Origin: Candidatus Hodarchaeota archaeon
GTDB taxonomy: Archaea > Asgardarchaeota > Heimdallarchaeia > Hodarchaeales > Hodarchaeaceae
DNA: 24,000 nucleotides
Assembly: GCA_048887065.1 (NCBI GenBank)
Contig: JBHLKC010000017.1
Span: 1 to 24,000, forward strand
Reading direction: 5' to 3'
Shown here: positions 6,834-23,907 of the stretch, piece after piece
How positions within the stretch are numbered: position 1 is the stretch's first letter
Layout of the letters: every line of letters starts with the position of its first letter
Position numbers and translations under genes: made by a program
The notes under the pieces: generated by a model
Database searches by the model: none
What the model was told of the DNA's origin: nothing
Seen by the model: the letters and a program-made list of their open reading frames with translations, nothing else

Positions 6834-7580
6834 TTAAAAAAACTGACTGTATAATTTATTAACTCTCCACCACATGTAATCAAGCCAATCAGCAAATTGA
6901 TCAATTATCGGTACACCCATTTTTTCAATGATGAATGCAAATACAATAGTACCAAAAAATCCAATAACTTTTGAAGATACATCATGAGCCCAATAAAAAG
7001 CTGTTTCTGAATCCAATTGGAATTGTGTTACTAGAAATGAAACACACCATAAATGGAATGTGATGCGTAATGCATTACCAATGAATAATGCTAGAAAGAA
7101 AACAAGACTTGCACGAATTTTTGAAGTCCACGGTGCTTCGGATACAATGATAATTGCTATTAATAATCCTCCAGCCTGCATTCCTGTACAAGCTTTAACA
7201 ATCCAATAATCTCCATTTGTCCCTGGAATGTGAATTCCAGGAGTTTGGATTGTAGCTTCTAAAAATGGGAAAGCACCACCTCTTAAATCTTCTGGAATAA
7301 CAGAGCTAGGATTAGCTGTAGGGATAATTGAGTTTTCTATTCCAAGAAATCGCAACAGTGTACTTATAATGTCTCTGGTAGGGATTTCTAGAAACACCCA
7401 ATCAGGAACAGTATAAATTAGGAATGTAATAATGATGGCAATCGCCAATGTTGATAGCATTAGCTTATCATTGTGAAATCGTTTTGTTTGAGAAATCGTT
7501 ACATCAGATTTAATCTCTTCATCAGTTTTTGAACCTAAAGCGTGTCCTGGAGTGGATATGGTCTGTGTATCACTTGTCAT
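6834..7580 (-). CDS. Archaeosortase/exosortase-family integral membrane protein
   Basis: 248-aa polytopic membrane ORF. The three signature elements of the exosortase/archaeosortase family occur in order: Cys in VKACTGMQAGG, Arg in FIGNALRITF, and His in YWAHDVSSKVIGFFG. The subfamily (ArtA-G) cannot be assigned by eye. Confidence 0.65.
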   Translation of the reverse strand: MTSDTQTISTPGHALGSKTDEEIKSDVTISQTKRFHNDKLMLSTLAIAIIITFLIYTVPDWVFLEIPTRDIISTLLRFLGIENSIIPTANPSSVIPEDLRGGAFPFLEATIQTPGIHIPGTNGDYWIVKACTGMQAGGLLIAIIIVSEAPWTSKIRASLVFFLALFIGNALRITFHLWCVSFLVTQFQLDSETAFYWAHDVSSKVIGFFGTIVFAFIIEKMGVPIIDQFADWLDYMWWRVNKLYSQFF

Positions 7581-7811: not shown

Positions 7812-9521
7812 TCATGTTGTTTGAAAACGCTCTGGATTCTGAAGTTGGTACCAACCATACTTTACCTGACAAATCTCCTTTTCGACTAAATCTCTTAAGA
7901 TTTGCTTAACATGTTCTTTTGGGAATTTTACCTCTGGAGTTAATAGGTTACTTTGTGCTTTATATTGTGGTCGTTGTAAAAGAGCTTGTATCACTTTTTC
8001 TTCAGCAGAAGAGAGGTTTAGTTCTTTGGGTATCTTATATTGGGGTATTTTCATAGATTGATCAATCGAGGAAGGACCTCGTTTCTGTTCTAAAATGTGT
8101 TTGTCCTTCAAGATATACCAACCATATGAGACTCGCAATATTCCTTTGTCAACAAGATTCCTTAAAACTTCTTTTAAAACACTTTGTTTCAACCCTGTAG
8201 GCCGTGTTAATAGATTTGATTGTGCTTTTAGGTTCGGTCTTGCTTTTATAGCTTTTATTGTAGCGATCTCTTCTAAAGTCAACCCTTCACCTACTCGAGA
8301 GATACGAGGGGATTTCTTTTTCTTTTTTCTTTTATCAACATCTGTAAATGTTCTTTTAAAGAAGGGTAAGTGGCTTTTCTTTATAATATACCATCCCACC
8401 TGAGTTCGAAGCAATCCCTTTGAAATTAAACTTCGTAAATGGGATTCTGCAACTTCTATAGGTACCCCTAGATCTTTGGCTAGGATTTCAGGCTTCGTTC
8501 GATGTTTTATACGCATGTAAGTGCGTTCAAGAATTTCCATCTCGAATTCTGAGGGTAAATCTTCCTCCCAATTATCTCGTCTAAATAATGTGGTCGTTTG
8601 TTTTAAAAAAGGTGCTATATCATCTGAATAAGATTTATCGGGAACCTTAGGATGAAAAAGGTCCCGTTCTAAATCATCCGTTGTCATTTTTAAATCAAGA
8701 TGTGTGTTTTCCGAGTCAGTAACAAAATCTTGCCCCAATTCATCCTTTAAAATAGGTTCTTTATCATTTGATGAAGTAAAGGTCTGTTCTTTTGGCGTTG
8801 AATTTGTATTATTAATATTTGGGGTTGGAGAAGTTGAGGTACTTCTCAAATCATCTGATGGAGGGGAAACTGTTCTTACTTGATCGAAAGCTGTTTCTTT
8901 TACTTGGGAGATCGTTTTCTTTGCTAGGGGCTTCTTCTTAGGTGTTTTTTCCAAATCATAAGGTGCTTCAATATCTATTTGGTTTGTTTTGATAGGTTGA
9001 TGTTTGATAGTTGCATCTATAGATGCTGCTTGGTTTCTCGTTTGAGTTTTTGTTAAAACTTGAGGTGATCGGTGGTGTTTTAGATTTTTTTTGCTTGCAT
9101 TAAGACTGAAAACAAGTGTTTTTTGAGTTGCTTTTATGGAATATTGACTTGTTTCGATGAGGTTAGAAATTTGATCTTCTAAAGTTTCAAAAGGGGAACC
9201 GATTCCTTCAATTTCAATAGTGAGCAATTCACCGTTAATAGTTTCAAGATAATCTTTAATCCTAATAATACTTAACTCTAATTGATTTAAATGGAAAAAT
9301 TCCAAGATTTCTCGATTCATCACTGTAGATTCATTACCATGAATTTCAAGAGTGTATAGTTGCTCTGATTGGGTTTCTTCAATATAAAAAATCAGTGATG
9401 GAAAATCAGGAATCCGAGGTGTCGCATGTACACTATTATCGATAAATTCAATTTCGCGGAACCTACCCCGAGCTTTCAAAAAATTAACAAAATCATTCAA
9501 AACAGTGTTTTGACGGTACAA
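7812..9521 (-). CDS. Hypothetical protein: N-terminal globular domain, ~175-aa low-complexity linker, three tandem winged-helix-like repeats
   Basis: 569-aa uninterrupted ORF (TTG start; no nearby in-frame ATG). aa ~145-320 are rich in S/T/P/K/N/D. aa ~326-381, 414-471 and 503-560 are three repeats, each ending in GWY (GWYIIK / GWYILK / GWYQLQ). Repeats 2 and 3 share RPxxKAQSNLLT. A K-rich spacer (KRKKKKKSPR) lies between repeats 1 and 2. Confidence 0.75.
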   Translation of the reverse strand: MYRQNTVLNDFVNFLKARGRFREIEFIDNSVHATPRIPDFPSLIFYIEETQSEQLYTLEIHGNESTVMNREILEFFHLNQLELSIIRIKDYLETINGELLTIEIEGIGSPFETLEDQISNLIETSQYSIKATQKTLVFSLNASKKNLKHHRSPQVLTKTQTRNQAASIDATIKHQPIKTNQIDIEAPYDLEKTPKKKPLAKKTISQVKETAFDQVRTVSPPSDDLRSTSTSPTPNINNTNSTPKEQTFTSSNDKEPILKDELGQDFVTDSENTHLDLKMTTDDLERDLFHPKVPDKSYSDDIAPFLKQTTTLFRRDNWEEDLPSEFEMEILERTYMRIKHRTKPEILAKDLGVPIEVAESHLRSLISKGLLRTQVGWYIIKKSHLPFFKRTFTDVDKRKKKKKSPRISRVGEGLTLEEIATIKAIKARPNLKAQSNLLTRPTGLKQSVLKEVLRNLVDKGILRVSYGWYILKDKHILEQKRGPSSIDQSMKIPQYKIPKELNLSSAEEKVIQALLQRPQYKAQSNLLTPEVKFPKEHVKQILRDLVEKEICQVKYGWYQLQNPERFQTT

Positions 9522-9804: not shown

Positions 9805-10272
9805 TCAAGAAGAAGGATTCAATAGCTTAACTCGAATTTCATCTGGTGTACTGTTGATAAATATTTTAGCTAATTGATTTGGAACGGAGAATGTTCTTTT
9901 TTTTAGCTCTTCAAAATCCTTCTCATTGGGATCCTGCTGAACATTTTCCCAAAGAGAAATATAATCTACTAATGGGATTCCCAAAGTGGGTTTATGTGTC
10001 TGAAGGACTATGTCCTGAAGATTATCAGAATCTCTTTCAATTTTATTTGATCTTTGGGGAAGTTCATCCTTTCCTATAGGTTTAGATTGTTCAACTAGTC
10101 CAAAGTAATAAAGCTCAACAAGGATGGCTAAAATTGTTGAGGAATCAACATCATCTTCAATTGAGTTTAAGATTTGGGCAATGGTTAATGGTCTTTTTGA
10201 CAACTTCTTTAGTATTGGTATAGTTAAAGGATGATCTAAGAGTTTTGATATCATTGTACGAGCGATCACCAC
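9805..10272 (-). CDS. Hypothetical protein with an N-terminal ArsR/MarR-like winged HTH
   Basis: 155-aa ORF (GTG 10272, or ATG 10254 giving MISKLLDHP...). The N-terminal ~55 aa (PLTIPILKKLSKRPLTIAQILNSIEDDVDSSTILAILVELYYFGLVEQ) fit a wHTH pattern. I do not recognise the C-terminal ~90 aa. Confidence 0.55.
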   Translation of the reverse strand: MVIARTMISKLLDHPLTIPILKKLSKRPLTIAQILNSIEDDVDSSTILAILVELYYFGLVEQSKPIGKDELPQRSNKIERDSDNLQDIVLQTHKPTLGIPLVDYISLWENVQQDPNEKDFEELKKRTFSVPNQLAKIFINSTPDEIRVKLLNPSS

Positions 10273-15009: not shown

Positions 15010-16470
15010 TTGGATTGGTTATTCCTTCTCCTACTCACAATTAATATTATTTCTGGCCTTATCCTTATTCCTTACCCAATTAATCTGTTTCTTCTAGCAA
15101 TTTCTTCAAATAATTGGAAAGATCCTGTAATAAGCGAATATTATGAAAAATCAAAACTGCCTAATGTTACAATACAGCTCCCCGTTTTCAATGAGACAAA
15201 TGTTATCAGACGTACTCTCTCTGGTATTACAAAGCTCGTGTATCCTTCTGAAAAATTATTCATTCAAATTCTTGATGATTCTACCGATCAAACATCATTA
15301 ATCATTGATTCTATCATTGATTCCCTTGAGGAAAAAGGATTTAATGTTGAAATTATCCGCCGAAAGAACCGAAAAGGCTATAAAGCCGGAGCTCTAGAAA
15401 ATGGAATAGAAAGTGGAGTATCTGAATTTGTAGCTATTTTTGATGCTGATTTTCAAGTCAATCCACATTTTTTAGAGAAAACGATTCATTATTTTAAAAG
15501 CAACGAACATGTTGGAGCTGTTCAAACTCGATGGGAGCATAATAATCTTCGTTATTCGATCTTTACTCGCGCAATGTCAATTGGCCTTGATGGTCATTTT
15601 CTTGTTGAGAAAATGGGGAGGAAAAGGAGGAATGCAGCAATTAGTTTTAATGGTACTGGAGGTATCTGGCGATCTTCAGTAATCAAAGAAAGCAGCGGAT
15701 GGTCCTCAGAAACACTTGCTGAGGATCTAGATCTGGCTTATCGGTCTCAAATGAGAGGGTACGATATTTTATATTTGAAAGATATAACTAACTCTCAAGA
15801 AATTCCTCCAACTATTAGATGTTGGATCATCCAGCAAAGTAGATGGGCTAAGGGATTTTCACAGAATTTAAGAAAAAACTTTATTCAGTTTTGGATGGAT
15901 TCAAGAGGAAAATCACGTATCCAAGGCTCAATCCATCTCACGCAATACTTTGTGCCTCTAATGATTCTCTTAAACACTAGTTCTGGTTCTTTGCTTCTTT
16001 ATTTTTCTCAATTTAAAGGTGAATTTCTCTTTGTATTTGGCCTTTTATTCACTTTAGCTGCTTTTCTAGGCATCCTAGCTTATGTGATAGCTGTCGTGAG
16101 GGCAAAAAGACCTTTATGGCATATTCTTTTAATCCCACTTTTCTTATTCTGGGGTGCAGGGTTAATTGTGAGAATGGGTCTAGGTTCACTAAGTGGTTTA
16201 TTACATAAAGGAGGAGAGTTTGTAAGAACTCCTAAATTCAATCTAATCGACGATCAAAAAATCATTTCAGCAAGTATCCGTGAAAATATTCCTTTAGATA
16301 GAATAATCTTAGTTGAATTAGCCTATATAGTAATTATTTGCTTTGGTTTGCTTAAAAGTCTAGAATTAGGTGGTACTTATCTCTCTCAAGCACTGTATTA
16401 CATATTTCTACTTCTAAGTACACTGAATTTAGTATTTTCAGAGCTGTTACATGCTTATAGCTCTTATTGA
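15010..16470 (+). CDS. Membrane-integrated family-2 glycosyltransferase (CslA / cellulose-synthase-like / glucosyl-lipid-synthase-like, Glyco_trans_2_3)
   Basis: 486-aa ORF with a TTG start. One N-terminal TM is followed by a GT-A domain with VTIQLPVFNE, ILDDSTD, FDADF, TLAEDLDL and QQSRWAKG (QxxRW), then about 5 C-terminal TM helices. Confidence 0.85.
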   Translation: MDWLFLLLLTINIISGLILIPYPINLFLLAISSNNWKDPVISEYYEKSKLPNVTIQLPVFNETNVIRRTLSGITKLVYPSEKLFIQILDDSTDQTSLIIDSIIDSLEEKGFNVEIIRRKNRKGYKAGALENGIESGVSEFVAIFDADFQVNPHFLEKTIHYFKSNEHVGAVQTRWEHNNLRYSIFTRAMSIGLDGHFLVEKMGRKRRNAAISFNGTGGIWRSSVIKESSGWSSETLAEDLDLAYRSQMRGYDILYLKDITNSQEIPPTIRCWIIQQSRWAKGFSQNLRKNFIQFWMDSRGKSRIQGSIHLTQYFVPLMILLNTSSGSLLLYFSQFKGEFLFVFGLLFTLAAFLGILAYVIAVVRAKRPLWHILLIPLFLFWGAGLIVRMGLGSLSGLLHKGGEFVRTPKFNLIDDQKIISASIRENIPLDRIILVELAYIVIICFGLLKSLELGGTYLSQALYYIFLLLSTLNLVFSELLHAYSSY

Positions 16471-16476
16471 ATCTTA

Positions 16477-16896
16477 TTATTGATTTAAAATACCATGACA
16501 ATCATGTTTTTCTGGTAATCGGTGTTCTGGGCAGTAATACTCGTTACAATAACTACAAGTAAATCCCATCAAGGCTGATTCTCCACAAAAATGGCATGTT
16601 CCTCTCATTACAGTCTTTTTTACCTGTTTAGAAGGAGGAATGATAGTAGGACTAAATGATTGAGAAGAGGGAGTTGAATATCGGTTAAATAATGATGTTC
16701 CTCCATAACGGCCTTTCATTGGCTGCAATATGAAGATAAAAATGAATAATATAGAGATACAAATAGTACTTATCCCAAGAGATAGCAATCTTAGATTATT
16801 TTCAGGAGGAAGGGCTAATAGCTCTATTAATGTAATTATGAGTATCACTATCCCAAGGAAGGTTGCTAATTGTTCTTGTTGTGTAAGATTGTTCAT
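16477..16896 (-). CDS. Two-TM membrane protein with a C-terminal AN1-type zinc finger
   Basis: The ORF track extends to 16944, overlapping the upstream gene. ATG 16894-16896 (MNNLTQQEQ...) lies 4 nt after the upstream TAA stop and gives 139 aa. It has two hydrophobic helices and an S/P-rich linker. The C-terminus is C-HF-C-GESALMGFT-C-SY-C-NEYY-C-PE-H-RLPEK-H-D-C, an exact fit to the AN1 pattern C-x2-C-x9-12-C-x1-2-C-x4-C-x2-H-x5-H-x-C (nt 16498-16596). Confidence 0.75.
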   Translation of the reverse strand: MNNLTQQEQLATFLGIVILIITLIELLALPPENNLRLLSLGISTICISILFIFIFILQPMKGRYGGTSLFNRYSTPSSQSFSPTIIPPSKQVKKTVMRGTCHFCGESALMGFTCSYCNEYYCPEHRLPEKHDCHGILNQ

Positions 16897-16900
16897 TATA

Positions 16901-17527
16901 TTAATTCCCCATGATTCCAAGAGGGTGAAAGGCCCATAAAACAATAGTTAAACTAAATATCAATAGAAAAACCCTTTGATTCCATTCAAAAATCTTAGCT
17001 CCGTCTAAAACTGATATAGGTATCAAATTAAATAAAGCTAGATCAAATGAAAATTTACTAGCAAGCAAGAATAGTGAATACCAATAATTTGGCAAGATAC
17101 CTGCAAAAATCAAAAAAATCCCTCCTATTAAGATGTTTGTTAATGGTCCAGCCATTGAAATCCTAGCTGGCATATCAGGGACATGTCTTCCTGAAGATAA
17201 AACAACACCAGGAGCAATAATTTTAATTGGCATAAATATGGAAAATAATGAGATAATTGCCATATTAGGGAAAAATCTAAATTCAGAAACAAGACCACTA
17301 CCCTGAGCTACAAATTTATGAGCTAATTCGTGAAAAAGAAAAAGAGGGATGCTCAGGATGCCCAGAATAATAAGGGTCATATATGTAGAGATGTCAAATT
17401 GGAGGAAATCCAATAATAACAGACTGGTGGCTCCTAATGGTAATATTATAATGGAAAGTTCTACTAGTACAAAAATTAAAGTTGCAACAATCAATTCTTG
17501 CTTTTCATTTGTAGAGAACTTAAACAT
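16901..17527 (-). CDS. Site-2 protease family (peptidase M50) intramembrane zinc metalloprotease, minimal form
   Basis: 208-aa polytopic ORF with an ATG start. HELAH (aa 66-70, nt 17318-17332) sits in a hydrophobic segment, and NLIPISVLDGAKI (the NxxPxxxLDG motif of M50) sits in a later TM. It has no PDZ or CBS accessory domains. Confidence 0.8.
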   Translation of the reverse strand: MFKFSTNEKQELIVATLIFVLVELSIIILPLGATSLLLLDFLQFDISTYMTLIILGILSIPLFLFHELAHKFVAQGSGLVSEFRFFPNMAIISLFSIFMPIKIIAPGVVLSSGRHVPDMPARISMAGPLTNILIGGIFLIFAGILPNYWYSLFLLASKFSFDLALFNLIPISVLDGAKIFEWNQRVFLLIFSLTIVLWAFHPLGIMGN

Positions 17528-17545
17528 ACGAAACTATTCTCCATT

Positions 17546-17740
17546 TTATTTCTCTGAAATTTGATCTACAAGCTTTTCCCAAGTTCCTAGTTCCCTATTG
17601 AGTAAATCCTCTATGGCTGTTCTCAAAAAGTGAGAACGAGATTCGTAATGGCCAAGTCGTACAAAATTATCTATCAAAATCAATATTTGATCTGGAATTT
17701 TGATACTAATGGGTTTTTGCCTTGTCATTGATGTTTTCAC
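17546..17740 (-). CDS. Ribbon-helix-helix (CopG/NikR-N-like) DNA-binding protein
   Basis: 60-64 aa (GTG 17740 or ATG 17728). ISIKIPDQILILIDNFVRLGHYESRSHFLRTAIEDLL fits the beta-strand/helix/helix RHH pattern (sRSefiR.Ai). It lies 18 nt upstream of the S2P gene on the same strand. Confidence 0.7.
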   Translation of the reverse strand: MKTSMTRQKPISIKIPDQILILIDNFVRLGHYESRSHFLRTAIEDLLNRELGTWEKLVDQISEK

Positions 17741-17933
17741 GCGCTTCTGAGATTCATTATTGTTTGTTATTTCAAATCATTTGTATTCGTTTAAAATTTC
17801 TTCGACTAAATGTATTTTTAATTTCTTTTTTGTATTCTTTCGTGAAATAATATCCAAACTAAGGATTGTTGAAAAAAGAAACAGTTTTATGTTTTTTTAA
17901 ACAGGCGCAATTCGTAGCAGCGGGTGTTCTAAT

Positions 17934-19229
17934 TTGAAATGCATTCTAGTAACAGCCACAGGCCTTCTCATTGGAGAATCTGATGAATCAAGCATAATAG
18001 AAAAGTCAGCTAAGATAGTTGATTCAATTTGGTTTGATCAGAAAGATGTCTTAACAAGTGAGAGCCTAGCAGAGTTCATAAAAACCAACAGTTCACGGAT
18101 TTTAGGTTTTTTAGATCAGTTTGATGATGAAATTATTTCGGATAACTCACAAATAATTGAATATCTTCGACAAGAAGGATTCAATAATGCTAGATATGCT
18201 AATATGGGAGAATTAGCTCCTTTTCGAGCCCAGGTTTTTGAATACTTGAAAAATAACATCCAATTAGCTTCTTCTGATACAATTGCTAATTTCATTCGTG
18301 ATAGAGCAATGGCAAAAACTCGCTTACTTTTAAGAGAGGGCGTAGAAACTAGAGACGCTTACATTGCACAGACAATAAACAGTATAGATGATGTAAATGC
18401 TATTCTTAATTTAATTTATGCCAGATTATCAGAATGGTATGGAATCCACTTTCCTGAGCTTCAAGAATTGGTTCGTGATAATACTCAATACATTAAATTA
18501 ATTTCAAAAACTAAAGCTGCTATCAGAACCGATTTAAATGAGGAAGTCTTAAAACATTTGTCTGATAAAAGACGAGGAAATATTTTAGAAGCAGCAAAAT
18601 TATCTCTTGGTAGTTCTATTTCAAAATTTGATGCAAATCCAATATCACAACTCGCGAGTTTTGGAGTCGAAATTCTCAAAATAAAAGATGGTTTAGAAGC
18701 TTATATTGACGAAAGTATGAAAGAAGTTGCTCCTAATATCCAATGTTTAGTTGGAAGTCTATTGGGTGCACGTCTGATTTCACTAGCAGGGAGTCTTGAA
18801 AATTTAGCCAAGTCTTCTTCGGGTACAATACAAGTCCTCGGAGCAGAAAAAGCTCTTTTTAGACATCTTAGATCTGGAGAAAACCCTCCAAAACATGGTG
18901 TTATTTTCCAATCACCATACATTCATTCAGCTAAGAAACATCAACGAGGAAAAATTGCAAGAGCATTAGCTGGTAAACTAAGTATAGCTACTCGGGTTGA
19001 CTTCTTTAGTGGTGAGTTTATTGGCCCAACTCTTCTTCAAGATTTAGATAAAAAAGTAGAGGAAATTAAGTCATCTTTTCCTGAACCTTCTGAACGTCAA
19101 CTTGCAGAAAAACGTCGAAAAAAAAAGCCTAAACAAAAATTTCCTTTTAAAAAGGGAAAATTTGTGTCTAAAGGGAGAAAAAGAGGCATTTCTGAGAAAA
19201 AAACAAAAAAAAGAAGAAAGGAGACTTAA
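17934..19229 (+). CDS. nop5: Nop56/58 (archaeal Nop5) C/D box snoRNP core protein
   Basis: 431-aa ORF with a TTG start (MKCILVTATGLL...). The Nop domain has LSEWYGIHFPEL, APNIQCLVGSLLGARLISLAGSLENLAK, GTIQVLGAEKALFRHL and PKHGVIFQSPYI. The C-terminal tail is Lys/Arg-rich. It is followed directly by fibrillarin. Confidence 0.93.
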   Translation: MKCILVTATGLLIGESDESSIIEKSAKIVDSIWFDQKDVLTSESLAEFIKTNSSRILGFLDQFDDEIISDNSQIIEYLRQEGFNNARYANMGELAPFRAQVFEYLKNNIQLASSDTIANFIRDRAMAKTRLLLREGVETRDAYIAQTINSIDDVNAILNLIYARLSEWYGIHFPELQELVRDNTQYIKLISKTKAAIRTDLNEEVLKHLSDKRRGNILEAAKLSLGSSISKFDANPISQLASFGVEILKIKDGLEAYIDESMKEVAPNIQCLVGSLLGARLISLAGSLENLAKSSSGTIQVLGAEKALFRHLRSGENPPKHGVIFQSPYIHSAKKHQRGKIARALAGKLSIATRVDFFSGEFIGPTLLQDLDKKVEEIKSSFPEPSERQLAEKRRKKKPKQKFPFKKGKFVSKGRKRGISEKKTKKRRKET

Positions 19230-19254
19230 ATTTACTTTAGGAAAGAGGCTGTAC

Positions 19255-19938
19255 ATGATGAAGCTAATCAAAACCAGTGTAGAAGGGTTATTCCAAGCGA
19301 AAAATGAAAAAAAATCTCGTTTAATAACTCTCAATAAAGTTCCAGGAGTCTCTGTTTATGGAGAACAATTAATTGTTATAGATAACAAAGAATATCGAGT
19401 TTGGGATCCTTACAGATCGAAATTTGCCGCAGCTTATTTATCGGGGATGAAAAAACTCCCTCAGATTCGTGGAAAAAAGATTCTATACCTTGGAGTTTCT
19501 ACAGGGACAACATCATCTCATTTTTCTGATATTTTAGGAGAAGGTATCATCTATGGAATTGAATTTTCACCCAAAGTAATGAGAAAGTTCTTCCGTTTAG
19601 CTGAGCAAAGAAATAATTTAATCCCAATTCTAGCAGATGCTAGACGGCCAGAAGAATATTCCTCGTATGTTTTTGAGGTTGATTTAATCTATCAGGATAT
19701 TGCACAGCCAGATCAAGCTACAATATTCGGTCGAAATGCATTTGAATTTCTAAAATCAGGCGGAGAAGGAATATTGGCAATCAAATCACAAAGTATAGAT
19801 GTAGTCCAAGAACCTGATGAGATTTTTTCTAAACAAATGAATGAGTTAGAACAAAATTTTGGATTAGAAATCACTGAATATCGTTCTATTGACGCATTTG
19901 AGAAAAAACATGCCGTTATAACTGTACAAAAACCCTAG
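19255..19938 (+). CDS. flpA: Fibrillarin (rRNA/tRNA 2'-O-methyltransferase)
   Basis: The ORF track starts at 19102 inside the Nop5 tail. ATG 19255, preceded by the SD-like AAGAGG, gives 227 aa. It contains EYRVWDPYRSKFAAA, KILYLGVSTGTTSSHFSDI, IYGIEFSP, IPILADARRP and DLIYQDIAQPDQ, a canonical fibrillarin SAM-MTase. Confidence 0.93.
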   Translation: MMKLIKTSVEGLFQAKNEKKSRLITLNKVPGVSVYGEQLIVIDNKEYRVWDPYRSKFAAAYLSGMKKLPQIRGKKILYLGVSTGTTSSHFSDILGEGIIYGIEFSPKVMRKFFRLAEQRNNLIPILADARRPEEYSSYVFEVDLIYQDIAQPDQATIFGRNAFEFLKSGGEGILAIKSQSIDVVQEPDEIFSKQMNELEQNFGLEITEYRSIDAFEKKHAVITVQKP

Positions 19939-20370: not shown

Positions 20371-20517
20371 TTGTCATCATCATTTTTCAGTTTAGAGAAC
20401 ATATTAAGCGAAATAAACCCACTTTTTTAAATAACTAGGACAAAGCACAAAACTTTTCAAAATACATGTATTAAGTGTCTTTGCTTGAAAAGTGGCTTAA
20501 AAACAGAAGGAAATGGA

Positions 20518-20826
20518 ATGAGAAGAAAACTAACAATACCTTACAGTGAGACAACAATAATGGTTCTTGTAAATTTAACAAGCGATACAAAATTTCTGTT
20601 TATCGCAAAGGTTAAGGATATTAATGAATCTAAAATCACGGTCACTGACAATCTTGAAGAGTTAGAACTTAGTATAGAGGGCGAAATTCTGTCAAATTTG
20701 GATGTGGGAGAGACTATAATCGTTTTTGGGGAGAAAAAGGATTCTATAATTAGGAAAGAACATATTATGAAGTTGAACATTGATTGGAATCTATATTTTA
20801 AAACACAGGAAATTGAATCAAGGTAA
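20518..20826 (+). CDS. Hypothetical small protein, possible OB-fold (RPA14/Ten1-like pattern)
   Basis: ~102 aa from ATG 20518 (the ORF track starts at TTG 20485). An alternating beta-strand pattern FLFIAKVKDI..ITVTD....LSIEG...LDVGETIIVFGEK....I.....MKL is followed by IDWNLYFKTQEI, which resembles the FDLGLYNEA-type C-terminal helix of RPA14. This is weak evidence from pattern only. The antisense ORF 20541-20852 competes for the same DNA. Confidence 0.45.
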   Translation: MRRKLTIPYSETTIMVLVNLTSDTKFLFIAKVKDINESKITVTDNLEELELSIEGEILSNLDVGETIIVFGEKKDSIIRKEHIMKLNIDWNLYFKTQEIESR

Positions 20827-21679: not shown

Positions 21680-22042
21680 ATGAAAATAAACGCTGAGAGA
21701 ATGCGAATTGAAGAGGATACTGATAATGATCTTTGGTTAGTAGATTTTCGCGATGAAGAGAAGAGCTTAAGAGGAAGGCTAGAAATTCCCACAAAGATCA
21801 TCTCATTTGAGGAAGTAAAAAATTTTGAAATCGAAATACTTTCTCGTAAAAAAGCAAAGAAAGATGCAAACTACAACGATGCGCGACTTGTTTTAAATGC
21901 CACTAGCTTTCGTACAAAACCTTTGGGTGATGAAAAAACCTATTCTTTTTCCGCAGGTGGTTTAATGTTACGAGTTTTCAGCGGAAAGCCAATATCAGAG
22001 TTCAAAGCAGCTCTTAAAGAATATATATTGATAATCAGATAG
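21680..22042 (+). CDS. rpo8: Probable RNA polymerase subunit Rpo8 (RpoG / Rpb8 homologue)
   Basis: 120-aa ORF, 18 nt after the Sm-like gene, with SD-like AAGGGG. The C-terminus KTYSFSAGGLMLRVFSGKPISEFKAALKEYILIIR parallels the Rpb8 C-terminus (..YYSFGGLLMRLEGN...L.......AYLLIRR). Its size matches archaeal Rpo8. The call is by recalled motif, not by search. Confidence 0.6.
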   Translation: MKINAERMRIEEDTDNDLWLVDFRDEEKSLRGRLEIPTKIISFEEVKNFEIEILSRKKAKKDANYNDARLVLNATSFRTKPLGDEKTYSFSAGGLMLRVFSGKPISEFKAALKEYILIIR

Positions 22043-22298: not shown

Positions 22299-23087
22299 AT
22301 GAGATTTAGCTTGGATTCATTACTCTATCGTCTTTATGAAAGGCGATTGTGGTCTCAAATCAAAGATGGCATAAAACAGGGAGTCCATCCTGAGCATGTA
22401 GCTTTAATTATGGATGGTAATAGACGTTTTGCTAGAAATAAGAATTTACCAAGCCATTTAGGACATTATTTTGGAAAAGAGAAGCTTAAACAGATATTGA
22501 ACTGGTTTTGGGATTTAGAAATCAAATATGTAACCCTATACGCATTTTCAACCGAGAATTTCGAACGAGATGAAGACGAAGTAAAGGAATTAATGCAACT
22601 TGCCGAAAAAGCATTTCGAGAAATAGTTGAACATCCTGAAATTAAGAAGCGTAATGTACAATTGAAAACAATTGGTCGAACTCATCTACTACCTCCAAAA
22701 GTTCAAGAAGCAATACGAGATGCAGAAGCAAGTACATCCTTATATGAGGATAAGGGCCCTGTATTAATTATCGCAATTGGATATGGGGGACGAGCTGAAA
22801 TGATTGATGCAATTAAATCGATTGCCAAAAAGATTGAGCGGAGAGAAATGACAGTTGAGGATATAAATGAAGTTGTTGTTCAGCGTCATCTTTATACCAA
22901 TGGTATTCCTGACCCTGATCTAATTATTCGAACTTCAGGGGAGGAACGGTTATCAGGATTTCTTACTTGGCAATCTGCTTATAGTGAACTGTACTTTGCG
23001 GATGTTTATTTTCCAAGTTTCCGAAAAATAGATCTTTGGCGTGCAATTAGGACTTATCAATCTCGTCAGCGGCGTTTCGGAAAATAG
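22299..23087 (+). CDS. uppS: Undecaprenyl/polyprenyl diphosphate synthase (cis-prenyltransferase, UppS)
   Basis: 262-aa ORF with HVALIMDGNRRFA, TLYAFSTENFERDEDEV, IRTSGEERLSGFLTWQSAYSELYF and RRFGK, which are canonical cis-IPPS motifs. Confidence 0.93.
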   Translation: MRFSLDSLLYRLYERRLWSQIKDGIKQGVHPEHVALIMDGNRRFARNKNLPSHLGHYFGKEKLKQILNWFWDLEIKYVTLYAFSTENFERDEDEVKELMQLAEKAFREIVEHPEIKKRNVQLKTIGRTHLLPPKVQEAIRDAEASTSLYEDKGPVLIIAIGYGGRAEMIDAIKSIAKKIERREMTVEDINEVVVQRHLYTNGIPDPDLIIRTSGEERLSGFLTWQSAYSELYFADVYFPSFRKIDLWRAIRTYQSRQRRFGK

Positions 23088-23151: not shown

Positions 23152-23907
23152 TTATGTATACATTCGTCTAGAAGTAAGTTTTTCTCTATCTGTTTCTTCC
23201 ATTGGGGCTAATTGTCTTTTTATTTCCTCTTCAATCTTCCGAGCATTTTGTATCAATTCTTCTGTCCCAATTCTCGTATTTAGTAGTTCATTAAGCTTTT
23301 CTATCGCTGAAACTGCCCCTAGAGGATCAGGCTGCTCCCGTTTCGCGTACGCCAGAAGACCGACTGCAGGGAACATATTCATATCAAGATAACCCAACAT
23401 AATAGCTAGAGGCCCGGCAACAAATAAACCTGAATCCAATAAATTATTACGAACCTCTTTAGAAAATCCTTCAGGTAAATTAGCATATTCATAAAAGGCC
23501 CGACTTGGGATATATTGTAAGGGATTTTCAGATTTTTTCAGATGAATATCAACACCTCCCAGAAAATAAGCAATCTCGAAGTGTTTCAGGTTTAGAATCC
23601 ATTCCGAGAGTTTTTCTGAAAATTCAATCTGAACATGGCGATATGGTTGAAGATGAGGGACAAAAACTGCAAAATCAAGATTATCCTTTCCATAAATTTC
23701 GAAAGGTAGCCGAAGTTGATTTTCTTGAACTGAAATAAAAGGTGGAGCCCCACTTGACATAATAGTCGCGATCCGTTCCATTTTAAGATCCTGAACTAAA
23801 TGAGACACAATTATATATCCAATTTCTCCAAGTCCATGCCATCCTCCAACAAATATACTACAGTGGTCTAGAATTTCTTGTTTTTCATTGAAAATTTTGA
23901 ACTTCAA
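23152..23907 (-). CDS. PAC2-family proteasome assembly chaperone (PbaA/PbaB-like)
   Basis: 251-aa ORF with a TTG start and GGAG 9 nt upstream. The N-terminus VGGWHGLGEIGYIIVSHLVQDL fits the PAC2 G-x-G-x-(V/I)-G pattern. The extreme C-terminus ...RRMYT ends in a hydrophobic-Tyr-X (HbYX) tripeptide. Confidence 0.7.
   Translation of the reverse strand: MKFKIFNEKQEILDHCSIFVGGWHGLGEIGYIIVSHLVQDLKMERIATIMSSGAPPFISVQENQLRLPFEIYGKDNLDFAVFVPHLQPYRHVQIEFSEKLSEWILNLKHFEIAYFLGGVDIHLKKSENPLQYIPSRAFYEYANLPEGFSKEVRNNLLDSGLFVAGPLAIMLGYLDMNMFPAVGLLAYAKREQPDPLGAVSAIEKLNELLNTRIGTEELIQNARKIEEEIKRQLAPMEETDREKLTSRRMYT

Follow-up and report, generated by a model that had tools for sequence, protein, structure and literature searches.

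The AN1 finger is among the least understood zinc fingers, and we know of no natural substrate of an archaeal site-2 protease (S2P). A 2011 paper by Burroughs, Iyer and Aravind reportedly noted the partnership of AN1 with membrane peptidases. In archaea, AN1 is found fused to M50 proteases, giving proteins of about 260-330 aa, in Nitrososphaeria (including Caldarchaeales and Wolframiiraptor), Odinarchaeota and Baldrarchaeota. Fusions of AN1 to rhomboid or Rce1-like (CPBP) proteases occur in Halobacteria, Archaeoglobi, Hadarchaeota, Nanohaloarchaea and Lokiarchaeum ossiferum, and Haloferax volcanii RhoII is presumably of the AN1-rhomboid type. Elsewhere, the stress protein Cuz1 binds the proteasome and Cdc48 (PMC5035049), and a transmembrane (TM) segment of BofA occupies the active-site cleft of SpoIVFB (PMC9042235). 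Literature searches for work tying AN1 to S2P, rhomboid, other membrane peptidases or Asgard archaea returned nothing relevant, and neither AN1 nor M50 is mentioned in Eme et al. 2023.

The window, that is, the whole stretch of 24,000 nucleotides analyzed here, comes from a Hodarchaeota MAG and contains genes for an RHH protein, an M50 protease and a two-TM protein ending in an AN1 finger (2TM-AN1). The original prediction, made from the sequence alone, knew of no characterised archaeal system of this composition; this is true of experimental work, but the association of AN1 with membrane peptidases proved to be widespread in the form of fusions. The M50 and 2TM-AN1 proteins are interpreted here, with a probability of about 0.55, as the two subunits of an intramembrane metalloprotease, a split AN1-S2P. 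Because most other archaea fuse the AN1 finger to the protease itself, a single enzyme divided over two genes is a better reading of the pair than a new signalling pathway.

Organization and conservation of the locus

The three genes were found in the predicted layout, all on the minus strand and separated by gaps of 18 nt (17528-17545) and 4 nt (16897-16900). The first encodes an RHH (CopG/Arc/MetJ-type) protein of 60 aa (17546..17728, starting from the ATG at 17726-17728), the second an M50/S2P protease of 208 aa (16901..17527, with an ATG start and a TAA stop at 16901-16903) and the third the 2TM-AN1 protein of 139 aa (16477..16896, with its ATG at 16894-16896 and 16477 as the end including the stop). 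For the RHH gene, the ATG is a more likely start than the proposed GTG at 17740 (64 aa), because homologues in public data are annotated with lengths of 59-61 aa and because many loci have a Shine-Dalgarno-like element (GTGA/GAGTG) ~10 nt upstream of it. A longer, TTG-initiated AN1 reading frame from 16944 is also present in the ORF list, and family alignment backs the ATG that had been chosen over it.

The RHH-M50-AN1 unit presumably has its promoter and 5' leader in the intergenic region common to the RHH gene and the divergent Nop56 gene (17729..17933, no strand assigned). Several related loci have TATA-like, A/T-rich elements such as GCATTTAAAAAA at ~70 nt upstream of the start of RHH. A search of the upstream sequence for a conserved RHH operator returned only the TATA-like and Shine-Dalgarno-like elements and weak, non-conserved palindromes. 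A scan for sigma-70 promoters and intrinsic terminators, which is not suited to archaea, gave counts at or below shuffle expectation.

The order RHH-M50-AN1 was kept in all 20 other genomes with a full-length relative. At these loci RHH and M50 share a strand with 12-59 nt between them (18 nt in the window), and the distance from M50 to AN1 ranges from -8 to +5 nt. At the level of sequence, the M50 and 2TM-AN1 genes are shown to be translationally coupled. Adjacency of the triad is weak evidence by itself, because the whole ~12-kb block (TFB, TBP, NnrD, GT2, the triad, Nop56, fibrillarin, TFS and Lsm) is syntenic and the genomes that hold it are close relatives, with TBP 93% identical; conservation across the 20 genomes was accordingly down-weighted as a proof of coupling. 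At one locus (L009) upstream synteny is broken and RHH is still joined to the M50-AN1 pair.

The two membrane proteins and their fused relatives

Profile search, invariant residues and fold all uphold the M50 assignment of the original prediction. The window protein matches PF02163 (Peptidase_M50) with 29.5 bits (cut-off 27.2), and both hallmarks on which the assignment had been based can be read directly from its sequence. The HELAH zinc-binding/catalytic motif (17318..17332, minus strand; residues 66-70) lies at the cytoplasmic end of TM2, and the NLIPISVLDG motif (17000..17029, minus strand; residues 167-176) supplies D175 as the third zinc ligand. Residues H66, E67, H70, N167, P170, D175 and G176 are invariant in the M50 family alignment of 57 sequences. 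The AF2 model (pLDDT 92.8, pTM 0.89), in which HELAH sits in a helix spanning residues 46-76, has the S2P core fold in minimal form, with five TM helices, a re-entrant beta/helix element and just a single helix beyond the DG motif; the distribution of K+R indicates an N-in/C-out topology. No sequence-level match was found in the PDB, and the best Foldseek matches there to the model were MjS2P (3B4R) and SpoIVFB (8VJM/8VJL), with probabilities of 0.98-1.0. As read from these alignments and the model, the protease is a minimal S2P that has kept its catalytic residues intact, with its active site (H66/E67/H70/D175) near the cytoplasmic face.

Sequence and AF2 model likewise bear out a two-TM protein with a C-terminal AN1 finger. 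Its transmembrane hairpin (16711..16881, minus strand; residues 6-62) is modelled as helices 6-28 and 34-62, with pLDDT of about 75-87 by 10-residue block; E8, G41 and S48 are invariant in the family alignment and F55 is nearly so. The family comprises 29 clusters, all from Hodarchaeota/Heimdall-type MAGs or metagenome contigs. Among 1.84 billion representatives ~4 true relatives of the hairpin were found, with none detectable outside the Hodarchaeota lineage, and on this evidence the two-TM hairpin is a module specific to the lineage. Derivation of the hairpin from TM1/TM2 of the protease itself was considered and rejected, because the similarity detected by hhalign is confined to AN1.

A basic disordered linker follows (16603..16710, minus strand; residues 63-98), with pLDDT <50 at residues 64-79 and 86-89. 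Its C-terminal end is a conserved motif, F-x-P-x-(I/V)-I-P-P-S-K-x-x-K-K-T, in which I86, P87 and K93 are invariant and P88, K90, K94 and T95 nearly invariant. The C6H2 AN1 zinc finger itself (16498..16596, minus strand; residues 101-133) matches the AN1 pattern exactly, as first noticed by eye, with the ligands C101-x2-C104-x9-C114-x2-C117-x4-C122-x2-H125-x5-H131-x-C133, all eight of which are invariant in 21 family members. Pfam supports the assignment (zf-AN1, PF01428; 36.0 bits, cut-off 27.9, E 7.6e-9) and returns nothing else for this protein save one sub-threshold match. Twelve AN1 domains in the PDB were matched, the best being that of yeast Cuz1 (5IJ4, E 4.2e-10). Mean K+R is 8.2 in the linker after TM2 vs 0.8 in the inter-TM loop, which places the finger in the cytoplasm, the side that the original prediction supposed. 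The protein has a cytoplasmic N-tail of ~9 residues, an extracytoplasmic inter-TM loop of ~5-9 residues and an N-out/C-in TM2, with the finger C-terminal of TM2.

To place the pair among its relatives, the best 60 AN1 fingers outside Hodarchaeota by similarity were examined. In 32 of these 60 the finger is N-terminal and fused, through a linker of 36-70 residues, to an HExxH-bearing M50 protease of the same subfamily; 19 are fused to rhomboid and 1 to Rce1-like CPBP. Three families of intramembrane protease, unrelated in mechanism, carry the same AN1 subtype. Outside the lineage, most of the nearest relatives of the window M50 (33-47% identity) have both PF02163 and PF01428. The two examined that seemed to lack AN1 (P0101 and P0144) were start-codon miscalls, in which an in-frame upstream AN1 had been missed by gene callers. 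The core of the split AN1 shares a median of 63.7% identity (range 58.6-68.5) with M50-fused fingers and 56.4% (range 51.7-60.5) with rhomboid-fused fingers, and hhalign matches it to the AN1 of fused members with 99% probability. In these comparisons, both the M50 and the AN1 of the Hodarchaeota pair belong to the fused subfamily. The window and 20 of 20 relatives have one gene for M50 and another for AN1, in which the finger comes C-terminal of a hairpin of its own, and the split-family finger has an invariant Gly (G111, LMGF) vs Pro (L[ML]PF) in fused AN1.

At Nitrososphaeria-type loci, an Hsp20 gene lies divergently just upstream of the fused gene in 17 of 32 cases, and an M17 aminopeptidase gene follows 0-39 nt downstream in 11 of 32. 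These neighbours point to proteostasis; the context comes from a single class-level lineage, and the window lacks it. Stand-alone TM-anchored AN1 proteins from other archaea (L023, L042, L064 and L067) had no M50, rhomboid or CPBP neighbour in phmmer searches.

A proposed split AN1-S2P and the alternatives

Taken as 'Rosetta stone' evidence, the fusions are judged the decisive observation for a split AN1-S2P. AN1 occurs in fusions and both halves of the pair are closest to fusion halves; 2TM-AN1 is therefore read as a detached accessory subunit. The narrow spacing of M50 and AN1 at 20 of 20 loci and the predicted placement of the protease active site and AN1 on the same membrane side count for the same reading, as does the proteostasis context of the fused genes, and the invariant small or polar residues of the hairpin (E8, G41 and S48) would suit specific helix packing. 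The hairpin and the basic flexible linker (~40 residues) hold AN1 on the cytoplasmic side, in a place equivalent to that of the N-terminal AN1 of fused proteases. In a split enzyme, the hairpin would dock on the protease within the membrane and so set AN1 at its cytoplasmic face. AN1 would serve as a protein- or peptide-binding accessory module, which could bind those parts of substrates that lie in the cytoplasm or pass cleavage products to the cytoplasmic proteostasis machinery; that the closest solved AN1 belongs to Cuz1, a stress protein, counts by analogy for a proteostasis-linked subunit. The RHH gene would be co-transcribed with the pair and probably regulate the unit or be co-regulated with it, the RHH-protease link being the weakest step.

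Several observations count against a split enzyme. The arrangement is not one of simple fission, with AN1 C-terminal of its own hairpin and not N-terminal of the protease, and the hairpin is without detectable relatives outside the lineage. The Gly-for-Pro exchange in the split AN1 could mark a changed function. Because the entire block is syntenic, adjacency within the lineage is a confounded argument, and the Hsp20/M17 context, which the window lacks, is drawn from a single class-level lineage. Conservation of RHH, finally, is far above that of both neighbours.

The RHH gene is also the subject of the alternative that survives best. Its assignment in the original prediction holds at the level of the family, 33 of 34 members matching RHH_1 at E<=0.01 (best 2e-6); the window protein itself, with 20.1-20.4 bits, comes 0.1-0.4 bit short of the cut-off of 20.5. 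NCBIfam matches are only weak, sub-threshold ones to the generic RHH regulators NikR, CdrS, aCcr1 and ParD. RHH proteins from 20 loci are 64-91% identical to that of the window, and the RHH median of 82% compares with medians of 82% for Lsm, 76% for fibrillarin, 55% for M50 and 47% for AN1. Judged by these identities, RHH evolves like a core factor, conserved far above its two neighbours. No RHH homologue was found with the family HMM within 6 kb of any fusion gene; the conserved neighbourhood proposed as a check thus holds for the triad in 20 of 20 other genomes but does not extend to RHH at the fusion loci, and the RHH gene is specific to the Hodarchaeota lineage. The transcriptional arm originally seen in RHH is a putative role. 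It is possible, if somewhat doubtful, that RHH is a core transcription factor throughout the lineage whose place is frozen with the syntenic block, independent of its neighbours, and that only M50 and 2TM-AN1 form a functional unit. Its Lsm-like identity, the synteny of the whole block, the fusions without a nearby RHH gene and the generic NCBIfam matches favour independence, whereas the short same-strand gap to M50 at 20 of 20 loci, the failure of a scan not tuned to archaea to find a terminator-like site, and the persistence of RHH with the pair at L009 despite broken upstream synteny speak against it. Independence of RHH is compatible with a split AN1-S2P.

It had been proposed that 2TM-AN1 is either the substrate or a partner of the protease. 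Fusions to M50, rhomboid and Rce1-like proteases strengthen the partner half of this proposal, whereas a releasable substrate is disfavoured because of topology, the finger following an N-out/C-in TM2 with a short external loop of 5-9 residues. As a substrate or anti-factor, 2TM-AN1 would be cleaved at its tether by M50, freeing AN1 or an AN1-sequestered RHH in an analogue of sigma/anti-sigma/S2P systems. The presence of transcription factor, S2P and small membrane protein genes in one unit is consistent with this, as is a cytoplasmic AN1 on a flexible linker, and the very high conservation of RHH would suit a double constraint from DNA and a protein partner; bacterial membrane-bound zinc-binding anti-sigma factors are S2P substrates. 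However, characterised S2P substrates are, as far as known, cut in N-in/C-out segments, an architecture unlike that of 2TM-AN1, and the short N-tail and loop leave no room for an effector, site-1 cleavage or a sensor domain. That the finger is fused in cis to the protease at 32 loci, and elsewhere to intramembrane proteases of two unrelated families, is unexpected for a released substrate, and the RHH gene is absent near the fusion genes. A substrate or anti-factor role of 2TM-AN1 is thus considered unlikely.

Similarly improbable is a role for 2TM-AN1 as an inhibitor or gatekeeper, in which the hairpin would block the protease cleft or lateral gate until a cytoplasmic cue acting through AN1 (zinc/redox state or client binding) relieved the block. 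The BofA segment in the SpoIVFB cleft offers a precedent, SpoIVFB is among the best structural matches to the M50 model, and a small two-TM protein with conserved hairpin residues, co-encoded and translationally coupled with an S2P, would fit. Against this, 2TM-AN1 has no sequence relation to BofA by Pfam, the releasing signal is hypothetical, and the ancestral role of AN1 was not cleft-plugging because the AN1 of fused relatives works without an extra hairpin. Least probable, and something of a long shot, is a wider reading in which the Hodarchaeales AN1 is a freed membrane adaptor coupling intramembrane cleavage to an unfoldase/proteasome (PAN or Cdc48 with 20S), a forerunner of ZFAND/Cuz1/AIRAPL and ERAD-like extraction, with RHH as its transcriptional output. 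Hodarchaeales is one lineage proposed to be closest to eukaryotes.

The general association of AN1 with membrane proteases was already known, and the organisms are uncultured; new here is an AN1 detached as a separate, translationally coupled subunit in one Asgard order. The split pair is a natural two-component version of the enzyme, in which finger and protease can be expressed, mutated and titrated apart. Because the genes are separate, the role of AN1 (substrate capture, proteostasis hand-over or regulation) becomes experimentally separable. For the question of how eukaryotic AN1 stress adaptors arose, the pair also offers a concrete point of departure in archaea.

Comparison with known systems

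One resemblance is to regulated intramembrane proteolysis (RIP) cassettes (sigmaE-RseA-RseP and SREBP-S2P), which likewise bring together a transcription factor, an S2P and a small membrane protein; the hairpin recalls SREBP. Here, unlike in those cassettes, the effector-like domain follows TM2 on its C-terminal side instead of preceding a type II segment, both an extracytoplasmic domain and a site-1 step are lacking, and the transcription factor is a soluble RHH protein with a putative link to the tether. The BofA-SpoIVFA-SpoIVFB complex similarly has a small two-TM protein beside an S2P in the membrane (PMC9042235), but BofA is not homologous to 2TM-AN1 and has no zinc finger, and an inhibitory role of 2TM-AN1 is putative. 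With the S2P of Methanocaldococcus jannaschii (3B4R) and SpoIVFB of Bacillus subtilis (8VJL/8VJM), the window protease has in common its S2P core fold and both zinc sites, HExxH and NxxPxxxxDG, at ~20% identity and a TM-score of only ~0.4; it has no CBS or PDZ domain.

The finger shares the AN1 fold with Cuz1, ZFAND1 and AIRAP(L), Cuz1 being its best solved match, and the L-P-F element of archaeal protease-fused fingers sits where Cuz1 has its exposed LDFLP motif (PMC5035049). Unlike these proteins, 2TM-AN1 has no UBL, UIM, A20 or VIM modules by Pfam and is embedded in the membrane by its own helices. The AN1-rhomboid and AN1-Rce1-like fusions also attach AN1 to the cytoplasmic side of an intramembrane protease; they differ in using serine or glutamate catalysis (zinc here), in the lower identity of their fingers (median 56.4%) and in being single polypeptides throughout. 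The AN1-M50 fusions are closest. The Hodarchaeota locus departs from them in its two genes, in an AN1 placed downstream behind a lineage-specific two-TM hairpin, in Gly for the conserved Pro of the finger, and in having an RHH gene ahead and no Hsp20/M17 neighbours. It shares with them the M50 subfamily (33-47% identity), the 5-TM core, an N-terminal F-x-F-S-x-T-E before TM1, the AN1 subtype (median 63.7% core identity) and a cytoplasmic AN1 carried on a flexible linker by the protease.

The three-gene locus and its surroundings

Re-reading of the sequence bore out the positions and orientation first described for the triad, in which an RHH gene (17546-17740), an M50 site-2 protease gene (16901-17527) and a gene for a two-TM protein with an AN1 finger, 2TM-AN1 (16477-16896), lie on the minus strand with gaps of 18 and 4 nt. 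Only the RHH start, originally put at a GTG at 17740, was revised; the ATG at 17726-17728 is probably the true start because its 60-aa product fits public homologues. The protease matches Peptidase_M50 in Pfam (29.5 bits; cut-off 27.2) and carries HELAH (residues 66-70) and NLIPISVLDG (167-176), the key residues of which are invariant in a 57-sequence alignment. Likewise, 2TM-AN1 matches zf-AN1 (36.0 bits; cut-off 27.9), and the exact pattern C-x2-C-x9-C-x2-C-x4-C-x2-H-x5-H-x-C at its C-terminus is invariant in the family. The 2TM-AN1 sequence is 100% identical to that of a protein in a Candidatus Hodarchaeota MAG. The RHH assignment holds for the family, with 33 of 34 members matching RHH_1, but the window protein itself scores 20.1 bits, just under the cut-off of 20.5. 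In NCBIfam, only sub-threshold generic RHH matches were obtained, to NikR, CdrS, aCcr1 and ParD.

Scanning one genome per species for AN1 gave 121 relatives, from which 80 loci were kept (20 full-length and 60 others). Nearly all of the 20 are labelled Hodarchaeota, Heimdallarchaeota or Promethearchaeota, with one Thorarchaeota, one Hermodarchaeota and one "uncultured archaeon." The order and orientation of the three genes were the same in 20 of 20, with M50-to-AN1 gaps of -8 to +5 nt and RHH-to-M50 gaps of 12-59 nt. This conservation is confounded, however, because the whole ~12-kb block is syntenic and the genomes are close relatives (TBP 93% and TFB 90% identical). In L009, the sole locus in which upstream synteny is broken, the triad is retained. 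Few genes in the block evolve faster than M50 (median 55% identity) and AN1 (47%). The 60-aa RHH protein (17546-17728) is far more conserved than these operon neighbours, with a median identity of 82% (range 64-91%, 20 genomes) that equals that of Lsm (82%) and exceeds that of fibrillarin (76%). This pattern, together with the finding of no RHH gene within 6 kb of AN1-M50 fusion genes elsewhere, favors RHH as a possible independent core regulator and not the transcriptional arm originally proposed, although co-transcription is suggested by the tight spacing of RHH from the pair on the same strand and by its persistence in L009.

The window is a housekeeping region, running from ribosomal proteins L3, L4, L23 and L2 through TFB, TBP, NnrD/YjeF, a GT2 glycosyltransferase and the triad to Nop56 and fibrillarin (divergent from the triad), TFS, Lsm, UPP synthase (22299-23087) and a PAC2-family (proteasome assembly chaperone-like) protein (23152-23907, minus strand, ~5.4 kb from the triad). 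The glycosyltransferase (15010-16470, plus strand), which has TM helices at its C-terminus, is convergent with the AN1 gene, the two stop codons being separated by 6 nt, and is present in 21 of 21 loci, L009 included; Haloferax volcanii RhoII affects S-layer N-glycosylation (PMC9263693). Pfam gave no match for four ORFs of 113-248 aa (6834-7580 and 9805-10272, minus strand; 20485-20826 and 21680-22042, plus strand), of which the latter two are conserved, beside TFS and Lsm, at 15-16 related loci. In a 569-aa protein (7812-9521, minus strand), TrmB-like and SAMD1-like winged-helix matches are confined to the C-terminal 150 residues. The fibrillarin ORF was called mechanically (19102-19938, plus strand) from a TTG within the lysine-rich tail of Nop56, a 128-nt overlap; its Pfam match begins only at residue 58, and therefore the true start probably lies just after the Nop56 stop.

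AN1 fusions in other archaea

In 52 of the 60 loci without a full-length relative, the AN1 finger was found N-terminal on a polytopic membrane protein. These comprise 32 M50 proteases with HExxH, 19 rhomboids and 1 Rce1-like CPBP protease, each architecture being confirmed by Pfam on representatives. The last, an Rce1-like CAAX/CPBP intramembrane protease that bears an AN1 finger and is encoded on chromosome CP104013.1 of the cultured Asgard archaeon Candidatus Lokiarchaeum ossiferum (L058:6001-6729), adds a third protease class. A reciprocal search with the window M50 showed that its nearest relatives outside Hodarchaeota (33-47% identity) are in most cases annotated with PF02163 and PF01428 together. 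Both of the seemingly unfused M50 relatives examined, P0101 and P0144, have public starts that are too late, with a complete AN1 finger missed by gene callers encoded upstream in frame (L081:3884-4627 and L082:3704-4567); database counts therefore understate the frequency of AN1-M50 fusions. A soluble HEVAH-motif protein encoded by a Hadarchaeales MAG (L075:5584-6627) runs on into a canonical AN1 finger and then another Cys/His cluster resembling AN1; this protein is a candidate AN1-bearing soluble metalloprotease.

The AN1 core of the split, two-gene family has a median identity of 63.7% to M50-fused fingers versus 56.4% to rhomboid-fused ones. By sequence comparison, both Hodarchaeota halves are nearest to the two halves of one protein of TACK archaea, Odinarchaeota and Baldrarchaeota. 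On Rosetta-stone reasoning, this correspondence suggests that the two products work together and argues for AN1 as an accessory module of the protease. The split finger is equivalent to the cis-fused domain of the sister proteases.

Membrane arrangement and role of 2TM-AN1

AF2 gave a confident model of the protease (pLDDT 92.8, pTM 0.89), which places TM1 at residues 6-28, TM2 at 46-76 with HELAH close to its cytoplasmic end, a re-entrant beta/helix element at 80-112, TM3 at 119-142, TM4 at 147-168 with N167/P170 at its end followed by D175-G176, and a final helix at 184-199. Its top structural matches are MjS2P (3B4R) and SpoIVFB (8VJM/8VJL), with probabilities of 0.98-1.0 and TM-scores of only ~0.4, and no sequence-level match to the window M50 was found in the PDB. 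Counts of K+R indicate an N-in/C-out topology, in agreement with the cytoplasmic N-terminal AN1 of the fused relatives; the active-site residues are intact and on the cytoplasmic side.

For 2TM-AN1, the model (pLDDT 71.5) begins with a hairpin of two helices (residues 6-28 and 34-62), continues through a disordered linker (roughly 63-95) and closes with a folded finger. Mean K+R is 8.2 in the linker versus 0.8 in the short inter-TM loop, and therefore the finger is cytoplasmic, as first envisaged, so that the translationally coupled partner tethers it to the active-site side of the membrane. In length, the linker (~40 residues) resembles the stretch of 36-70 residues that separates AN1 from TM1 in the fused proteins. 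The hairpin is lineage-specific: no profile similarity was found between it and the protease helices, and a search of 1.84 billion representative proteins gave only ~4 true relatives. Within the split family E8, G41 and S48 are invariant and F55 nearly so, the motif I-I-P-P-S-K-x-x-K-K-T preceding the finger is conserved, and an invariant Gly (LMGF) occupies the position of Pro in fused fingers.

The hairpin would dock on the protease, with the finger acting as a putative protein- or peptide-binding accessory. A gatekeeper role for the hairpin, for which BofA is a precedent (PMC9042235), is possible. Gatekeeping cannot, however, be the ancestral role of AN1. Of the two roles originally offered for 2TM-AN1, partner or substrate, the former is favored, and a substrate or anti-factor is disfavored because other archaea carry the finger in cis on the protease itself, the fusion genes have no RHH neighbor and the tether geometry is wrong, in that S2Ps prefer N-in/C-out segments whereas AN1 follows an N-out/C-in helix, with a cytoplasmic N-tail of ~9 residues and an external loop of ~5-9.

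Possible link to protein quality control, and known systems

AN1 is attached to intramembrane proteases of the zinc, serine and glutamate types, and its role should therefore be generic. Two hints, gene neighbors and a likeness to yeast Cuz1, point to protein quality control. Hsp20 is divergently paired with the AN1-M50 gene in 17 of 32 Nitrososphaeria-type loci (19 of 32 within 2 kb), and in 11 of 32 the AN1-M50 gene is followed after 0-39 nt, on its own strand, by a gene for an M17 leucyl aminopeptidase, although the loci come from a single class-level lineage, which limits independent support. This context is seen within L021-L062 (e.g. L047:5432-5926, minus strand, and L040:4284-5777, plus strand). 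The closest solved structure to the window AN1 is that of Cuz1, which is induced by stress, binds both the proteasome and Cdc48, and needs its AN1 for zinc-dependent proteasome binding (PMC5035049).

The split form seems to occur only in Hodarchaeota/Heimdall-type Asgard archaea, a lineage proposed as sister to eukaryotes (PMC10307638), a placement that is contested (PMC12222021, PMC12395588). This two-gene form, its lineage-specific hairpin and the ultra-conserved upstream RHH appear to be undescribed in the searchable literature. The general association of AN1 with membrane peptidases is already known, though uncharacterised experimentally, since Burroughs, Iyer and Aravind (Mol Biosyst 2011) reportedly found that in prokaryotes the B-box, AN1 and LIM domains partner with a variety of membrane-associated peptidases, and H. 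volcanii RhoII is an AN1-rhomboid.
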